A DNA stretch of 64,000 nucleotides from a virus. A program made the position numbers and the translations under genes. The number at the start of each line of letters is the position of its first letter. Position 1 is the stretch's first letter. The notes below the pieces were generated by a model. That model did no database searches. It saw nothing but the letters and a program-made list of their open reading frames with translations, and had not been told where the DNA came from. The stretch covers positions 85,118-149,117 of IMG/VR virus record IMGVR_UViG_3300045988_058524. One strand, given 5' to 3'. This document shows, in pieces, positions 6,630 through 64,000 of this stretch.

Positions 6630-6874
6630 GGAACTTTCAATACATTTTTAATAACAATCTCCTTCTTCATCTTACCAAACTGCTTCTCTATTTCATCTGG
6701 AATATTCACTTTTATGTCCATCAACGATGTTAGGTATTTAACTTTATCCCTAACATCATCAATCAGAGCACCATTAGTTTTTATTCTCATTCCAATGTCT
6801 TCGATCCTTCTAGATAAGCATATAATTAGCAAGATATTACATAACCCTATTACTGCCAAAGCGTATACCATCAT
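6626..6874 (-). CDS. small membrane protein
   Basis: N-terminal hydrophobic helix. Confidence 0.3.
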
Positions 6875-7452
6875 ACTCCAGTATGTCCAAATCCACCTTC
6901 TCCTCTCTCAGTAGAGGGTAATTCTTCTACAGCCTCCCATTCTATAGTTTCATGCTTAGCAATAATCATTTGGGCTATCCTCTCTCCGTCCTTTATTCGC
7001 ACAGGATGATTAGAAGTATTAACTAGTACTATCCCTACCTCCCCTCTATAATCAGCGTCAATAGTTCCTGGAGAATTTAAAACTGTAAGCCCATGCTTCA
7101 AAGCAAGTCCGCTTCTAGGACGGATTTGTGCCTCATAACCCTTAGGTAGAGCTATAAATAACCCAGTAGGGATTAAACATCTACCTCCAGGTTTAATCTC
7201 AATAGTGGAGGCCGCTGGGATTGTAGCAACCTTCTTATCAGTTGGATTTCCCTCTTTGTCTAGGACAAATGGAGCATCTGGAGCCTCTATAAGACTTATA
7301 GCTACTACATCTGCATCAAAGAAGTTCTTTTCTGGTTTGCTGTCTACTAGTTTGATTCTACTAAAATCTCCACAGATATCCATACCTGCTGAAAGAGGAG
7401 TTTCATACTTAGGAAGTTGATGTCTGGATTTATTAATTATTGATACTTTCAT
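6871..7452 (-). CDS. dut: dUTP diphosphatase (trimeric dUTPase with insertion)
   Basis: All five dUTPase motifs: [39 protein letters not shown]. Confidence 0.75.
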
Positions 7453-7987
7453 GGAGCAAAATAAATTCTTTTAAATAAAACTTAGCATCTATGATACACT
7501 TGGGAACTAGTCCCTCTAACTCTAAATCGTTTCTTATAGCATCCCTCACAATGGTAGCTGATATTCCTTCTTCTACCTGTTCTCTAGCCATAAGAGTCAT
7601 AGATATGTAATCCTTTAGCATGAACTTTGGAAACCATGTAGTAATGATTTCATATCCATCACTATAGTAGATATTAAAAGAGGATTCTTTTATAATACTA
7701 ACTATATTAGCATATAAATAGAATCCCCAATCCTGAGAGTTGTCTGACTCATCAGTTAAATCCTTAAGAGGATGTATCACACATTTATTAAGCAGACCTT
7801 CCTCTTCTAGTGCTGTCTCTAATAATCTCATTCTAATATTTATCGGAATGGGATTTCTAGCATTTATCTTATCAGCACTTCCAACCAGCAAAAGAACCTT
7901 ATCATTCTCTAAACAGGCTTTTCTAATTAAAGCTAGATGCCCATTATGAATGGGCTGAAATCTAGCTAAAATAACTCCGTATTTCAT
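7433..7987 (-). CDS. nucleotidyltransferase of the HxGH cytidylyltransferase fold, probable NMN adenylyltransferase
   Basis: [16 protein letters not shown] (HxGH). NMNAT assignment is inferred from the co-occurring Nampt gene. Confidence 0.45.
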
Positions 7988-8295
7988 TTGGAATCTTTTT
8001 GTTTATTAGTTATCTCTGTAGTTTTAATTATCTCTCTAAAGTCTAATAACTTCCAGTTTTGTCTCTTATATTTCTTATGGTCTTGTGCAAAATCCTTTAA
8101 ATCAGATTTATTACAAAACAAAGCAAAAGCATAATCAACTATAATTTCAGAAATCTTTTCGTAGTTCTGCTCCTTATTTGTAGTCAAGTTGAGAATTACA
8201 TCATCAATTTCTAAATCTGGACAGTTGTATTTAGCTGGAATGTAGTTTTTGTCATTATAATAAACGCAAACAATATTTGTAAATTTTCTAATCAT
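7984..8295 (-). CDS. hypothetical protein
   Basis: ORF track. Confidence 0.3.
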   Translation of the reverse strand: MIRKFTNIVCVYYNDKNYIPAKYNCPDLEIDDVILNLTTNKEQNYEKISEIIVDYAFALFCNKSDLKDFAQDHKKYKRQNWKLLDFREIIKTTEITNKQKDSK

Positions 8296-8642
8296 ATTAA
8301 GCTAGTTAATTCTCTTAATTTAATAGGAGTAAATTCAAAGTTAAACCAATCTCCATCTGTAGTCTGAAACATATGAGAATCCCAATCTATTGTTGTAATC
8401 TTTGGAACTGTTTTTACAGGATTACAATTAATGATTACAGGAAGCCCCACCTTAAATGCTCCAGTAATACCATCATAGACCTTTCCGACACCAGATTTGT
8501 GCCAAACCTTTATTCTACCATGTTTAGAGTGAAGAAGGTCTTCTTCCTCACTAGTGAAATCTTTGAAGATGTTCTCCTCCAAACCCTTTATCAGAAGACA
8601 CTTTTTACTAAGAATATCAGATACGTCACTCTTTTCTACCAT
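8292..8642 (-). CDS. hypothetical protein
   Basis: ORF track. Confidence 0.3.
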   Translation of the reverse strand: MVEKSDVSDILSKKCLLIKGLEENIFKDFTSEEEDLLHSKHGRIKVWHKSGVGKVYDGITGAFKVGLPVIINCNPVKTVPKITTIDWDSHMFQTTDGDWFNFEFTPIKLRELTSLI

Positions 8643-12995: not shown

Positions 12996-13665
12996 TTATT
13001 TCTCCTTTTAATATACTATTAAGTATCTCTCCAGTGTCTGCCAAATCTACTCTGTCTGGCATCATCTCAAACGGTAGGTCATCTGCATCAAAATCCAGCA
13101 TAATTTGCTTCATATTAGATGTCTTATCTCCCCAATACTCACTTGGGGAACTTGTAGCTTTAGATATTGAATCTTCTAAGGTATTAATTAATCTTTTAAT
13201 ATCTTCAGTCATAGTTGCATGACATACAAACTTCGGAGTTGTTATCAAAAACATCCCAAAGTGGTCAATAATGAATTTATTGATATCTGTATAACCAAAC
13301 TCCTCCGCCAAATCTTTTAATTTTTTACTAAACTTGGTATATTGGTAGTTCTTTATTTTGAAGTAATAACCTATATCTTGAAGAAGTGCTTTCTTTAGGC
13401 AAGTTTTGTATCCTCTCATAGTCCTACCCACAACAGAATCCCCTACTTTGCATTCGTGCAATATAAAGGTTATTTTTCCATCTTTGAAGTACCATCCAAA
13501 TCCATCTGTCCAATAAAACTTTAGTAGTATACATTCCCCATTAGAGGATGTGCTTATACCTAGTTTTACTGCATCTTCTAACATAGGTTCATTACTGACT
13601 ACCCCATTCTCGTCCAAAGCATTATACAGGATTTCTTCACCTGTGTACCGTTTCCATTTATCCAT
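12979..13665 (-). CDS. hypothetical protein
   Basis: ORF track. Confidence 0.35.
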   Translation of the reverse strand: MDKWKRYTGEEILYNALDENGVVSNEPMLEDAVKLGISTSSNGECILLKFYWTDGFGWYFKDGKITFILHECKVGDSVVGRTMRGYKTCLKKALLQDIGYYFKIKNYQYTKFSKKLKDLAEEFGYTDINKFIIDHFGMFLITTPKFVCHATMTEDIKRLINTLEDSISKATSSPSEYWGDKTSNMKQIMLDFDADDLPFEMMPDRVDLADTGEILNSILKGEINGIDD

Positions 13666-43099: not shown

Positions 43100-43651
43100 T
43101 TACTCCAGACTAATTAAACCCTTCTCTAACATAATATGGTGATTCGGACATAACCATACTAAATTATTCTCGTTGTTAATCTCCTTAATAAGAGTGTCTT
43201 CGTCAAATTCTAATATTCCTTTAAGATGATGTACTTCAAGTATTGCATCAAATTCATGATTATGACAATATTGACATACTTTCTCACGTTCGGAACTTTC
43301 TAATACTCTACGAGCATTAGTCCTTATTTCTTGACATTTAGATGATAAGTACTTCTGCCCAGATGTATAATAACCTAATGTTTTGTTACCAATTCCATTA
43401 AGTTCTTCCCAGCAACTACGACACATTTCTGAATCTTTATGCTTAGGTTTACCACATCTAGGACATATCTTGTTTTCATCGTGCTTTATCCTACCTCTAT
43501 TATTGTAAGAAGCAGCACACGAATGACTACAAAACTGTTTCTTCCTCACATCTGCGACCCTCTGATTATCTAGTACTTCGATTACCTTACCACATTCCTT
43601 ACAGTGGTTAGGATTCTCATAATACAATTTAAGAGATTGTTCTCGATTCAC
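43100..43651 (-). CDS. HNH homing endonuclease with N-terminal Zn ribbons
   Basis: HHLKGILEF...NLVWLCPNHH (HNH motif); several CxxC pairs. Confidence 0.65.
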   Translation of the reverse strand: MNREQSLKLYYENPNHCKECGKVIEVLDNQRVADVRKKQFCSHSCAASYNNRGRIKHDENKICPRCGKPKHKDSEMCRSCWEELNGIGNKTLGYYTSGQKYLSSKCQEIRTNARRVLESSEREKVCQYCHNHEFDAILEVHHLKGILEFDEDTLIKEINNENNLVWLCPNHHIMLEKGLISLE

Positions 43652-43788
43652 AGATAAGTTTAATTAATTTTAATGACAGTGTGATATGCAAGCCATTACA
43701 CCACAGCCTCGAAAATGCAGGTATTTATCTCGTTACACCTGCGAGTCCGGCAACCCTTTCTTATATACCGCGTGAGCTGGCGGTTTTG

Positions 43789-43862
43789 TAGGGCTAATCA
43801 GACTTGAACTGATAACCTCCACATTATCAGTGTGGTGCTCTAACCAGTTGAGCTATAGCCCT
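43789..43862 (-). tRNA. tRNA-Ile(GAT)
   Basis: Acceptor AGGGCTA/TAGCCCT; anticodon loop CTGATAA; T-arm ATCAGTTCAAGTCTGAT. Confidence 0.8.
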
Positions 43863-43868
43863 ATTATG

Positions 43869-44429
43869 TGGACCTAACGGGAGTCGAACCCGTGTCCAAA
43901 CAACCCTCGTTACAAGGATAACGTGCGTCTCATTTTTATTACATCAGCTAGGGAGTTCTAGCATTTAGGTAGTTTTATAAGTCTTACAAGAGTCCATACT
44001 AAGTATTTCTCTAGATGCTTATCTACAAGCTACCAAACTATAGGGCTGACCGAAGTCAACGTTCCACCACTCCATTTACGTTGGAGAACGGGATGATACT
44101 TTAGAGATTCGTCACATCTCATGGAACACATCTTCCATCTGTTTTATGACGTAGGAGATTCAGTCTTACTAACTCTTAGAGTGTTCTGATTAAGAGTATA
44201 TTACTAGGATTAGAGCCTAGCTCTCCATTATATCAATATACTCAACCTCTTCTGTTTCTAGGTCTCTCCCGTAACCCGACTTAGTTAATAGTGTCTACCA
44301 ACAAGCCAGCAGCTTAGGCTGCCATTCTTACAGGTGCAATTTCTGCAGTTATTTGTTTTCTTCGTTTAAAGAGATTGCGCTCTACACGTCCTTATAATTC
44401 GTAATCGCCTGTCAAATCCAAGTAGGCCC
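43869..44429 (-). ncRNA. tmRNA-like RNA (tRNA-like acceptor/T-arm ends enclosing ~490 nt)
   Basis: 5' end GGGCCUACUUGGAUUUGACAGGCGAUUACGAA parallels the tmRNA 5' consensus (E. coli GGGGCUGAUUCUGGAUUCGACGGGAUUUGCGAA). 3' end ACGGGTTCGACTCCCGT-TAGGTCC-A forms a T-arm plus acceptor strand pairing with the 5' GGGCCTA. All frames are closed by TAA/TGA. Candidate tag frame ...AEIAPVRMAA-TAA. Confidence 0.45.
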
Positions 44430-44438
44430 ATGTTCCCG

Positions 44439-45014
44439 TCAATTAGACGGGAGTTTACATTGTTTAATTATTTCCTTAGTAATTACGTTATTAGCTTCTC
44501 TAGATAACTTATTCAGTTTCTCTAGGTCAAACTCGCTAGATTGAAACTTGAATTGAATCCAAGTTGGCTCGCTTGGTCTATAATCTAACCAAGATTCACA
44601 GTCATCGGTTCCAAGAACTTCTCGTACCATAGCTAAAATACGTTCACCAGCAGCTTTAGTTTTTACGAATCCAGATAAATCATATCCAACACCTCTAGAA
44701 CTCCAGTATTCTCCTTCCTCTAGACGAATGTCTTTTGGTTTCCAATGCCAAGGAGAAATACCTTTTCTAGGATGGTCTATTCTTATAGCTTCTTCCTTTA
44801 CCCATTCAGAGTTTGGGTCAGACGGATTCTCTGGATAAGCTCCATACAAACACTTCATAGTAGGATTATCGCTCCTTACTTCAAAATGTATACCACAGTG
44901 CCTACAAGTACCAGAAGTTAAACCTCCTCCAGATACACAACTACCTTTAATGGCATCACAACCACAGTTGGGACAACCCCATTTTAGGTATTCGTCATAA
45001 AGTATTGATAACAT
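44439..45014 (-). CDS. hypothetical Cys-rich protein
   Basis: CPNCGC...CRHCG. Confidence 0.35.
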   Translation of the reverse strand: MLSILYDEYLKWGCPNCGCDAIKGSCVSGGGLTSGTCRHCGIHFEVRSDNPTMKCLYGAYPENPSDPNSEWVKEEAIRIDHPRKGISPWHWKPKDIRLEEGEYWSSRGVGYDLSGFVKTKAAGERILAMVREVLGTDDCESWLDYRPSEPTWIQFKFQSSEFDLEKLNKLSREANNVITKEIIKQCKLPSN

Positions 45015-45757: not shown

Positions 45758-45824
45758 TAGCGGGATTCGAACCGACGACCTTCAGGTTATGAGCCTGACT
45801 AGCTACCTCTGCTATCATCCCGCG
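45758..45824 (-). pseudogene. tRNA-fMet(CAT)-like gene with ~7-nt deletion in the T-stem/acceptor 3' region
   Basis: Aligns with E. coli initiator tRNA (CGCGGG.TG...GGCTCATAACC.GAAGGTCGTCGGTTC.AATCC) then ends CCCGCTA. The 3' T-stem strand and part of the acceptor are missing. C1 is unpaired as in initiators. Confidence 0.4.
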
Positions 45825-46027: not shown

Positions 46028-46100
46028 TGGACACGCAGGGACTCGAACCCTATCTTCCGGTGTGCAAAACCAGCGCTCTAGCCATTTGAGCTAACGGCCC
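46028..46100 (-). tRNA. tRNA-Ala(TGC)-like with mispaired acceptor stem (possibly degenerate)
   Basis: D-arm GCTCAAATGGCTAGAGC; anticodon loop TTTGCAC. Acceptor 5' GGGCCGT versus 3' CGTGTCC pairs only at 1-4, including G3-U70; positions 5-7 are mismatched. Confidence 0.4.
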
Positions 46101-62954: not shown

Positions 62955-64000
62955 TTTTATTAATTATTACTAGAACTATTAGTTTCAGCTTGAATAGCTT
63001 ACTTATCTCCTAAACCACGTAAAGGTTGTTCTTATCTTAGGAGTAGAGGCACCGCTGTGCCTCACAATTGTCTCAGAACTTTCCTGTGCCTATAGCCAAA
63101 TGGCTATTTTCGATTATATAGTGTATAATCTCACAATACTTTGCCTTATCTCTCGATAAGACATCTCTCCAGTATCAAGGAGCATACTGTTTGGTATAAG
63201 AGATGCTCTGCATTAGTCTCTGGGCGTACCCATTATAGTCCTTAACAGCAAATAGAGCCTACAAGTAGCTGTAGTCCTCAAATACTAAGTTCCCCACTCC
63301 GGGTTTGAACCAGAATCTCCTTCTTTAGAGGAAGGCGCAATGCATTATACTAATGGGGAAAACTCTATCTTGGCAACTAGTATAAGATAGAGAGTTATTC
63401 AACTACTTAATTCTCAGTTTCCTATACTGAAAATCAAATAGCTACGTTACTAACGTTCACTAAGAATATAGGTAGCTAATCCATATTCTTGCGACTGAGT
63501 TCGAGGTAGGAAATATACCCTTATGAGGTATCCTCTTATCAGCTAGCCTTATTAATCTAGCGGCTTATACCAGGCAACTTCTAATACAATTGTATAACAT
63601 ATAAAAATATGACATACATGGTCTACTGGTATGTCAGCAGTACTTTCATATATTGCTATAAGTGACCAATCTTATAGCTCAATCCTCCTTACTCATGAGA
63701 TAAGTTTGCGAACTCTCATTTTCATTAATAGCAGTTATTTTCGGATATTGGGCTATCTGCGTAACCCCGCTTTTTGTTGCCTTTTTATAGGCTAATGTTA
63801 GAGTAAATAATCATTGTAGTATGAGTTATAAAACTCGTCCTACTGACGATTTTTTGAAAACTGGAAAAAGTAGGAAAATCTGCCTTTGAGTTTGTGGAAC
63901 ATTCTTCTCCTTACTCTCCATATTTTCACGTGAAACATACACGATTTTACTAGAAATGATAGTCTTTCCTATCAGCCAGACATAAAAACTAAAACTACTA

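Follow-up and report, generated by a model that had tools for sequence, protein, structure and literature searches.

The question raised by this locus is whether a bacteriophage carries, among a large set of transfer RNA (tRNA) genes, its own transfer-messenger RNA (tmRNA) and, if so, what kind of tmRNA it is. The DNA analysed, hereafter the window, comprises 64,000 nucleotides (nt) of the viral record IMGVR_UViG_3300045988_058524, and an original prediction made from its sequence alone had placed a phage-encoded tmRNA at positions 43869-44429, naming covariance models, ARAGORN, pseudoknots and a resume codon as the points to be checked. When the whole window was compared with all 4227 Rfam families, RF00023 matched this stretch over the full length of the model (positions 1-374) with 66.2 bits, above the gathering threshold of 47 (E = 1.3e-23), and an nhmmer profile of the family described below spans both ends. 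The tmRNA gene is thus confirmed as real, correctly located and correctly interpreted: it runs from 44429 to 43869 as a single piece of 561 nt, the predicted coordinates being exact and the strand, which had been left out, being the minus strand. As had also been claimed, the stretch is free of open reading frames (ORFs) of any size, the longest one overlapping it having 33 amino acids (aa) and the longest stop-free runs in the standard code being of 37 and 44 codons. We also considered the permuted, two-piece form of tmRNA (RF04321), which was rejected because the match is only partial (20 bits, against 47) and the ends lie in the standard order. Throughout, nt n of the tmRNA corresponds to window position 44430 - n, and all the window features described are on the minus strand, as are all the genes of the window.

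About 95 related viral contigs, mostly of 95-192 kb, carry the tmRNA at the syntenic position, in the order tRNA-Ala(UGC), 0.8-2 kb of small ORFs, tmRNA and, usually, tRNA-Ile; among the phage records of GenBank, only two unannotated human-faecal fragments carry the RNA. Exact searches of IMG/VR returned 34 contig stretches with its 3' 23-mer, 36 with its 5' 20-mer and 92 with an internal 20-mer, and a profile search of the fetched loci recovered 86 full-length copies, corresponding to 71 unique sequences of 513-601 nt; the RF00023 scores of the relatives range from 47.8 to 85.8 bits. Some complete contigs of about 185-192 kb, such as IMGVR_UViG_3300045988_056936 and _060496, have a tmRNA identical to that of the window. 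Since the relatives are of this size throughout, the large size of the tmRNA is a family trait and not an assembly artefact.

In its general plan the RNA is like the bacterial one-piece tmRNA (ssrA), with which it shares a tRNA-Ala-like domain with a T-arm and a D-loop analogue, a long helix H2, a 10-codon tag frame whose stop lies in hairpin H5 and, between this hairpin and the 3' strand of H2, a structured domain; a candidate pseudoknot 1 (PK1) precedes the tag. The predicted 5' consensus is present as GGGCCUAC-UU-GGAUUUGACAGG-CGAUUACGAA from 44429, and the RNA ends in GGACACGGGUUCGACUCCCGUUAGGUCC-A at 43869. The 7-bp acceptor helix is formed, as had been proposed, by GGGCCUA (nt 1-7, 44423-44429) and UAGGUCC (nt 554-560, 43870-43876), the 3' strand being followed by the discriminator A (nt 561, 43869); all seven pairs are kept in 70 of the 71 unique relatives, through six compensated variants (GGGCCUA, GGGCCUG, GGGCUUG, GGGGAUG, GGGCCUU and GGGCCAU, each with the matching 3' strand). 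The alanine identity elements G3·U70 and A73 are present in the window copy and, again, in 70/71 unique relatives. CCA is not encoded: the discriminator is followed by CAU, all the relatives are likewise without CCA, and so is the neighbouring tRNA-Ile. The D-loop analogue GGAUUUGAC (nt 11-19, 44411-44419) aligns to the RF00023 consensus GGAUUCGAC, its UUGA (nt 15-18) being invariant in 70 sequences. The T-arm, ACGGG-UUCGACU-CCCGU (nt 537-553, 43877-43893; stem 537-541/549-553, loop 542-548), was found exactly as described; it is 100% paired, with four of the five stem pairs compensated across relatives, and the T-loop pattern GUUC-A-U is invariant across the family. Helix H2 joins its 5' strand (44384-44411), made of H2a (nt 19-24), H2b (33-40) and H2c (41-46), to the 3' strand at nt 504-533 (43897-43926), where the partners are 528-533, 513-520 and 504-509, respectively; the three segments are 99.5-100% paired, and 10 pairs show changes on both sides.

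The PK1 region of the window copy (44363-44383) has a short form, with an invariant 4-bp first stem, AGAG/CUCU (nt 47-50/57-60), the loop CGCAAU, and a second stem in which at most 2 bp are possible (nt 51-52/66-67). The long-form relatives do have a covarying second stem (GUA/UAC in 28, GCA/UGC in 8 and, as a G·U intermediate, GUA/UGC in 1; 36/37 covary). Of the pseudoknots that were to be looked for, PK1 has both stems in these relatives and would be minimal in the window.

The candidate tag frame, said to end in MAA-UAA, is also present. It reads GCA GAA AUU GCA CCU GUA AGA AUG GCA GCC UAA (44346-44314), that is, ten codons for AEIAPVRMAA from the resume codon GCA (nt 84-86, 44346-44344) to the stop UAA (44316-44314). 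AAUAACU lies directly 5' of the resume codon, and the A at its position -4 is found in 71/71 relatives and the U at -5 in 68/71. In all 71 unique sequences the frame is intact, with 9-10 codons, a resume codon of the type GCN or GGN and UAA or UGA as stop. The original prediction had suggested that the RNA might rescue ribosomes stalled while host translation is manipulated or where amber codons are slowly decoded; the one related fact, a weak one, is that none of the 71 tags ends in UAG, for which the phage has a suppressor tRNA with a CUA anticodon, UAA being the usual stop of tmRNAs in any case. At least 12 tag alleles exist (AEIAPVRMAA, ATYSEVRMAA, GNTEVRMAA, GNTTYRMAA, AERSDYRMAA, AEIDYNRMAA and GETEGFRMAA among them), all with a variable N-terminal half and with a fixed C-terminal motif, [V/Y/N/F]-[R/K]-M-A-A; the end is [R/K]MAA with two exceptions, RLAA and RMVA. 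A hydrophobic residue followed by Ala-Ala at the C terminus is the classic degron signature by which ClpXP recognises ssrA tags. The strings RMAA and GENNYALAA gave no match in searches of the literature and its supplements. Hairpin H5 (nt 106-112/117-123, 44307-44324) holds the UAA (nt 114-116) in its loop; it is 100% paired in the family and shows compensatory swaps (GCAGC/GCUGC, GCUGC/GCAGC and GUAGC/GCUAC).

How well the secondary structure is supported as a whole was measured by projecting a 21-helix model on a MAFFT alignment of 70 sequences, with controls in which the 3' partners were slid by 1-3 columns. The model gave 88.5% standard pairs, against 36-47% in the slid controls, 49 pairs with both-sided changes, against 20-25, and a covariation score of 0.219, against 0.05-0.08; none of 500 shuffles reached the observed values. 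Strict both-sided covariation is found in H1, H2a, H2b and the T-arm. Together with the tag frame, intact in every unique sequence, the compensatory changes indicate that the RNA is under purifying selection. All-against-all scans for covariation, run on a global MAFFT alignment, were discarded: they were too noisy when G·U pairs were tolerated, and in their strict form they recovered only the helices of the tRNA-like domain, the interior blocks being either invariant or mosaic and misaligned. As these scans were inadequate, we adopted anchor-delimited folding, in which the variable segments are folded between invariant anchors, followed by the explicit model test just described.

What, then, makes the RNA so long? 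Although the extra length amounts to about 190 nt over the 374-position Rfam model, the alignment to RF00023 carries an insertion of 273 nt, and this falls in a structured domain at nt 124-503 (43927-44306) that occupies the place of PK2-PK4. In this post-tag domain, invariant anchors alternate with modules or hairpins that have been swapped wholesale between relatives. The helices supported are e1, e3, e7, e9, e10, the closing stem of module S4 and e13, of which e1 (nt 128-135/139-146), e7 (nt 344-348/356-360) and e13 (nt 468-472/479-483) come from the explicit model test. Hairpin e3 (nt 187-236, 44194-44243) is the clearest case of a swap, with at least six unrelated stem sequences in the relatives, each forming a long hairpin. 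A short UUCG hairpin (nt 370-385) covaries (UGAC/GUCA, GACC/GGUC and GACU/AGUC). Helix e10, GGUAG/CUACC (nt 396-400/458-462, 43968-44034), is 98% paired and encloses S4 (nt 401-454), in whose closing stem (408-412/449-453) each of the five pairs shows both-sided changes; in relatives of the L015/L049 type, S4 contains a clean H-type pseudoknot in which both stems have been replaced. The CUACC of e10 has two alternative partners, GGUGG (362-366) or GGUAG (396-400). A long-range pairing of GGGUU (153-157) with AGCCC (383-387) was dropped, since it clashes with the well-supported UUCG hairpin. Among the invariant elements of the domain, the 20-nt hairpin GACCU-AGAAACAGAAG-AGGU (nt 166-185, 44245-44264) is the internal 20-mer found exactly in the 92 viral contig stretches.

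In our judgement these features are best, and quite probably, explained by a functional phage-encoded tmRNA that acts in one piece, along the following lines. The RNA would probably be co-transcribed with the surrounding minus-strand array of tRNAs and ORFs; RNase P would cut its 5' end, while cleavage before tRNA-Ile and trimming would free the 3' end, to which CCA would be added after transcription since none is encoded. The host alanyl-tRNA synthetase could then charge it through G3·U70 and A73, and SmpB, most likely that of the host, together with EF-Tu, would bring it into ribosomes that have stalled on reaching the 3' end of an mRNA that is broken or has no stop. With the GCA at 44346 as the point of resumption, Ala and then AEIAPVRMAA would be added to the peptide, and termination at the UAA within the H5 loop would release the ribosome and leave the peptide marked. 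What the phage would gain is probably a supply of free ribosomes at a time when host mRNAs are degraded and much translation is required, in keeping with its large tRNA set. The sequences show the anatomy of the gene with its conservation and covariation, from which expression, processing, charging, the use of host SmpB and the benefit to the phage are inferred.

Several observations weigh against this reading. The PK1 of the window copy is minimal. The basic residue at position -4 of the tag is not typical of the tags of Bacteroidales hosts, so that the tag may not act as a degron. The Pfam scan of the 87 ORFs of the window revealed no SmpB, and neither did tblastn with the E. coli protein as query in the window, which is about a third of the ~190-kb genome, and about 100 loci; function would thus depend on a compatible host SmpB, which we take as a working assumption. 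Finally, the tmRNA appears to be dispensable at least sometimes, since one relative has lost it and another carries a damaged copy. In the former (L022, IMGVR_UViG_3300045988_065177, 188.8 kb) there is no tmRNA; instead, positions 6680-6752 hold a chimeric tRNA-Ala, in which the 5' part of tRNA-Ala is joined to the 3' end of the tmRNA within the shared T-loop sequence GGGTTCGA, with tRNA-Ile directly next to it. The deletion corresponds to window 46037-43892, that is, three ORFs and the body of the tmRNA, and arose by recombination between two alanine-type T-arms. In the latter (L041, 7390-7955) the 3' acceptor strand has been replaced, with UGGCGUU in the place of UAGGUCC, a change that probably inactivates the RNA.

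The alternative that best survives these data, unlikely as we hold it to be, keeps the tmRNA functional and changes its purpose: the phage RNA would redirect or blunt the trans-translation of the host, out-competing the host tmRNA and giving tagged proteins a different fate, with the enlarged domain or its hairpin maybe recruiting a phage factor. That different fate might, though again we would not expect it, consist in sparing phage nascent chains or in feeding another protease or adaptor. In its favour are the C-terminal motif of the tag, which stays the same in at least 12 alleles whose N-terminal halves vary freely, and a hairpin that is invariant within a mosaic domain and is common to group I introns of these phages. 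There is also a precedent in the tmRNA of mycobacteriophage DS6A, which is phage-borne as well, lacks a coding sequence and inhibits the host, according to what PMC11915505 cites of it; the gut-phage RNAs differ from it in that every relative conserves the tag frame. However, the tag ends in the very signature of a degron, the conservation of AGAAUGGCAGCC can be explained by its being the 5' strand of H5 rather than by selection on the peptide, and no phage partner protein has been identified. A more ambitious version, which we find similarly doubtful, would make these RNAs a distinct architectural class of tmRNA of crAss-related gut phages, in which the enlarged domain and the hairpin dock a phage factor, [R/K]MAA alters the fate of the tagged proteins, and rescue is re-programmed, possibly together with the amber-suppressor tRNA.

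Far less credible is that the phage once picked up the ssrA of a host (e.g. by integration at ssrA) and that this copy is now decaying or non-functional, a passenger with no current role. The bacterial gene is indeed often an integration site, with fragments left in prophages (PMC9004378), and the loss in L022 and the damage in L041 have been tolerated. Nevertheless, the covariation has already largely disposed of this reading, with compensatory changes in the acceptor, H2, T-arm, H5 and PK1. The gene is, moreover, complete rather than a 3' fragment, its tag frame is intact in 71/71 sequences, and it has as neighbours the tRNA genes of a replication module rather than an integrase. The more specific idea of a prophage attP fragment of the host ssrA was rejected for the same length and location, and no integrase is present among the window Pfam and PHROG hits shown.

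An intron was suspected in the interior of the RNA on account of the invariant hairpin. The 20-mer GACCUAGAAACAGAAGAGGU, which folds into a 4-5-bp stem with an 11-nt purine-rich loop, occurs once in the window, and no complementary partner of the loop was found there above chance. Of the 92 stretches that carry it, three (L077, L080 and L090) do so without a surrounding tmRNA. In L080 (2405-2424) the 20-mer, GACCTAGAAACAGAAGAGGT, is the loop of the peripheral P2 of a group I intron within a protein-coding gene (RF00028, 76 bits). L077 and L090 have L080-like sequence upstream of the 20-mer and an HNH-type ORF downstream, which suggests that they carry introns of the same type, though no RF00028 match is listed for either. 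The true group I introns of the family score 76-94 bits with RF00028, whereas a sensitive scan of 43700-44600 gave no such match at E<=1; the similarity between tmRNA and intron is confined to about 23 nt, and the strings of the intron core are absent from the tmRNA, the P2-loop 20-mer alone being common to both. With no intron match, no core strings and a similarity so limited, the extra sequence is an expanded, partly mosaic helical domain and not an intron. Thus, that the interior is a group I intron at a site other than the T-loop, or some other self-removing element, leaving a mature RNA of normal size, or that the whole is an intron-containing tRNA-Ala, is the least credible of the readings considered, for all that the exact 20-mer is shared with real introns of related phages, that a relative has an intron in its tmRNA and that introns outside the T-loop may have been missed according to the authors of the tmRNA database (PMC11915505), given that only a peripheral loop is shared, that the interior varies by swaps and indels of single hairpins rather than as one block present or absent, and that both a D-arm and an anticodon arm are missing after the acceptor strand.

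The original prediction had already dismissed an intron-containing tRNA, rightly: in the window copy the T-loop is uninterrupted, and neither ARAGORN nor Rfam calls a tRNA here. The relative with an intron in its tmRNA, L099, shows what the interrupted form looks like. Its gene (7186-8633) is 1448 bp long and contains an 864-nt group I intron (RF00028, 94 bits) between T-loop nt 2 and 3, with U at position -1, G as the last intron position and an antisense HNH-type ORF of 194 aa. It thus belongs with the known tmRNA genes that have a group I intron in the TΨC loop, whereas the window copy is intronless. The site is the 'position 3' of PMC11915505, found there only in the class Bacteroidia, and both intron and gene exceed the maxima of that study (introns under 700 bp, longest gene 1152 bp).

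Compared with bacterial ssrA, and in spite of the common plan, the RNA described here shows important differences: (i) it is encoded by a phage; (ii) it has 561 nt (513-601 in the family) against the 374 positions of the model, with the 273-nt insertion; (iii) its post-tag domain, usually one of three pseudoknots, is richer in helical elements and is mosaic between relatives; and (iv) its tag ends in [R/K]MAA, CCA is not encoded and, in the window copy, PK1 is minimal.

Phage tmRNAs as such are already known, from mycobacteriophages, from Melnitz and pelagiphages (in two pieces) and from huge phages, and those, like the present one, lie beside tRNA genes in genomes of lytic type. A survey of 18,146 isolate phage genomes detected such genes in 402 (PMC9004378), huge phages carry them alongside SmpB (PMC7162821), and 79 unique phage sequences are listed in the tmRNA database (PMC11915505); the original prediction was therefore justified in calling them rare and less so in calling the finding striking. 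The role proposed for them is to keep the translation apparatus running once a phage has hijacked it (PMC9004378, PMC7162821, PMC11915505). Unlike the Melnitz and pelagiphage tmRNAs, the gut-phage family is in one piece; no riboswitch is attached to it, and no phage SmpB was seen in the gut-phage sequence searched. In the literature consulted we found no report of a tmRNA for crAss-like phages, the word appearing there only in citations of ARAGORN and in generic Pharokka annotation counts. What the present analysis adds is an undescribed, abundant and oversized tmRNA family in gut phages that the standard tools have overlooked.

Indeed, ARAGORN, which had been proposed as a check, does not call the tmRNA of the window, and misses 68 of the 71 unique sequences of the family; the three that it detects are each given a wrong tag. 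Its silence on the window tmRNA is a false negative and not evidence against the RNA. A length limit, suggested by its calling only the relatives of 515 nt, was rejected as the reason, as constructs shortened to 469 nt by removal of interior hairpins and natural relatives of 513-514 nt are missed as well. ARAGORN was used in two surveys of phages (PMC9004378, PMC7162821) and in Pharokka, and the main search of the tmRNA database combined ARAGORN with BLAST (PMC11915505). With such a rate of omission, the published counts of phage tmRNAs may miss families of this kind.

These findings concern a prominent group of viruses, since crAss-like phages, with their relatives, rank with the most abundant viruses of the human gut, and they add a tmRNA to a translation machinery supplied by the phage that already included about 26 tRNAs and a suppressor tRNA. 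The family is, moreover, a natural experiment on tmRNA architecture, with lengths of 513-601 nt, swapped hairpin modules, one T-loop intron and one deletion. Two loose ends, the hairpin shared by introns and tmRNA and the fixed [R/K]MAA end, are potentially more interesting, and the short tag sequences can be searched for directly in gut metaproteomes.

Which phage, and which host, are involved? The window encodes a phage module for replication and nucleotide metabolism, with NrdD, dUTPase, DNA ligase, primase/helicase, Sak4, RNase H, NAMPT, PRPP synthase and RNA ligase, as well as OmpA and outer-membrane beta-barrel proteins, and by ARAGORN and Rfam about 26 tRNA genes lie between 37 kb and 63 kb. 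Its GC content is 35.8%, and TAG terminates only 4 of 85 long ORFs. With their counterparts in crAss-like phages, among them DAC15 and DAC17, cultured on Bacteroides thetaiotaomicron, NrdD and NAMPT share 63-71% identity, while another large protein is closest to Ackermannviridae (43%), a similarity that makes the genome a mosaic. The zeta group of crAss-like phages (PMC12386605) is of the same size class (relatives of ~185-192 kb) and is alike in tRNA number, GC content, suppressor tRNA and homing endonucleases; that study used tRNAscan-SE only and does not mention tmRNA. The phage is thus probably related to crAss-like phages, with a probable assignment to the zeta group, which is not proven since the window has no structural hallmark gene. 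The protein similarities, the OmpA-type genes and the intron site of L099 point to a Bacteroidales host. A scan of bacterial genomes returned only an ordinary tRNA-Ala in a metagenome-assembled genome (MAG) of Saccharibacteria and one phage contig in a 'Clostridium sp.' MAG. The latter (L037, CALEBD010000016.1, 'uncultured Clostridium sp.') is 29.8 kb long and 87-96% identical to the window, tmRNA included, and most likely comes from a phage and was assigned to the MAG by a binning error.

The immediate neighbours of the tmRNA are a tRNA and a small ORF. tRNA-Ile(GAU) (43788-43862; ARAGORN, and Rfam with 74.3 bits) lies 6 nt downstream, an arrangement found in most relatives. Upstream, the stop codon of a 191-aa ORF (44439-45014) with Cys-rich, zinc-ribbon-like motifs is 9 nt before the 5' end; this ORF is present in about 42 loci, not always beside the tmRNA. 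None of the adjacent ORFs (191, 98 and 139 aa) matches a Pfam family, and their linkage to the tmRNA is inconsistent. Scans of the sequence for sigma-70 promoters and terminators gave counts not above those of shuffled sequence, the 'terminators' being H5 and the UUCG hairpin of the tmRNA itself.

Other features of the region deserve mention. Several lineages have a short hairpin 5-9 nt before the start of the tmRNA, with the sequence CCGUC-UAAUU-GACGG in the window (44436-44450) and other sequences at the equivalent positions of L046, L064 and L091; it may be a processing or termination signal. Further upstream, tRNA-Ala(UGC) (46028-46100) is found only by Rfam (39.5 bits) or by ARAGORN at a relaxed threshold. 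Its acceptor stem has G3·U70, and pairs 5-7 are mismatched (GGGCCGU versus CGUGUCC); the mismatch is not a one-off error, as the diverged L047 has the same 3' end. Between this tRNA and the small ORFs sits a partial tRNA-like element (45760-45815) with a CAU anticodon loop, which matches positions 9-63 only of the Rfam tRNA model (31.8 bits) and may be a degraded tRNA. Just downstream of tRNA-Ile, an ORF of 183 aa (43103-43651) encodes an HNH endonuclease (Pfam HNH_2); many relatives have a 100% identical protein together with a tmRNA that has diverged by more than 10%, a pattern suggestive of a mobile gene that has been spreading recently.

The phage lineage is rich in structured RNAs. At the far end of the window, a full-length RAGATH-14 RNA (63389-63582, 183 bits) lies directly 5' of the suppressor tRNA with the CUA anticodon (63289-63359), which ARAGORN labels tRNA-Pyl. 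In loci of related phages (L045, at 13016-13099, L064, L091, L099 and L100), a Hatchet ribozyme (81.8 bits) and RAGATH-34 RNAs (74-121 bits) occur within a few kb of the tmRNA.

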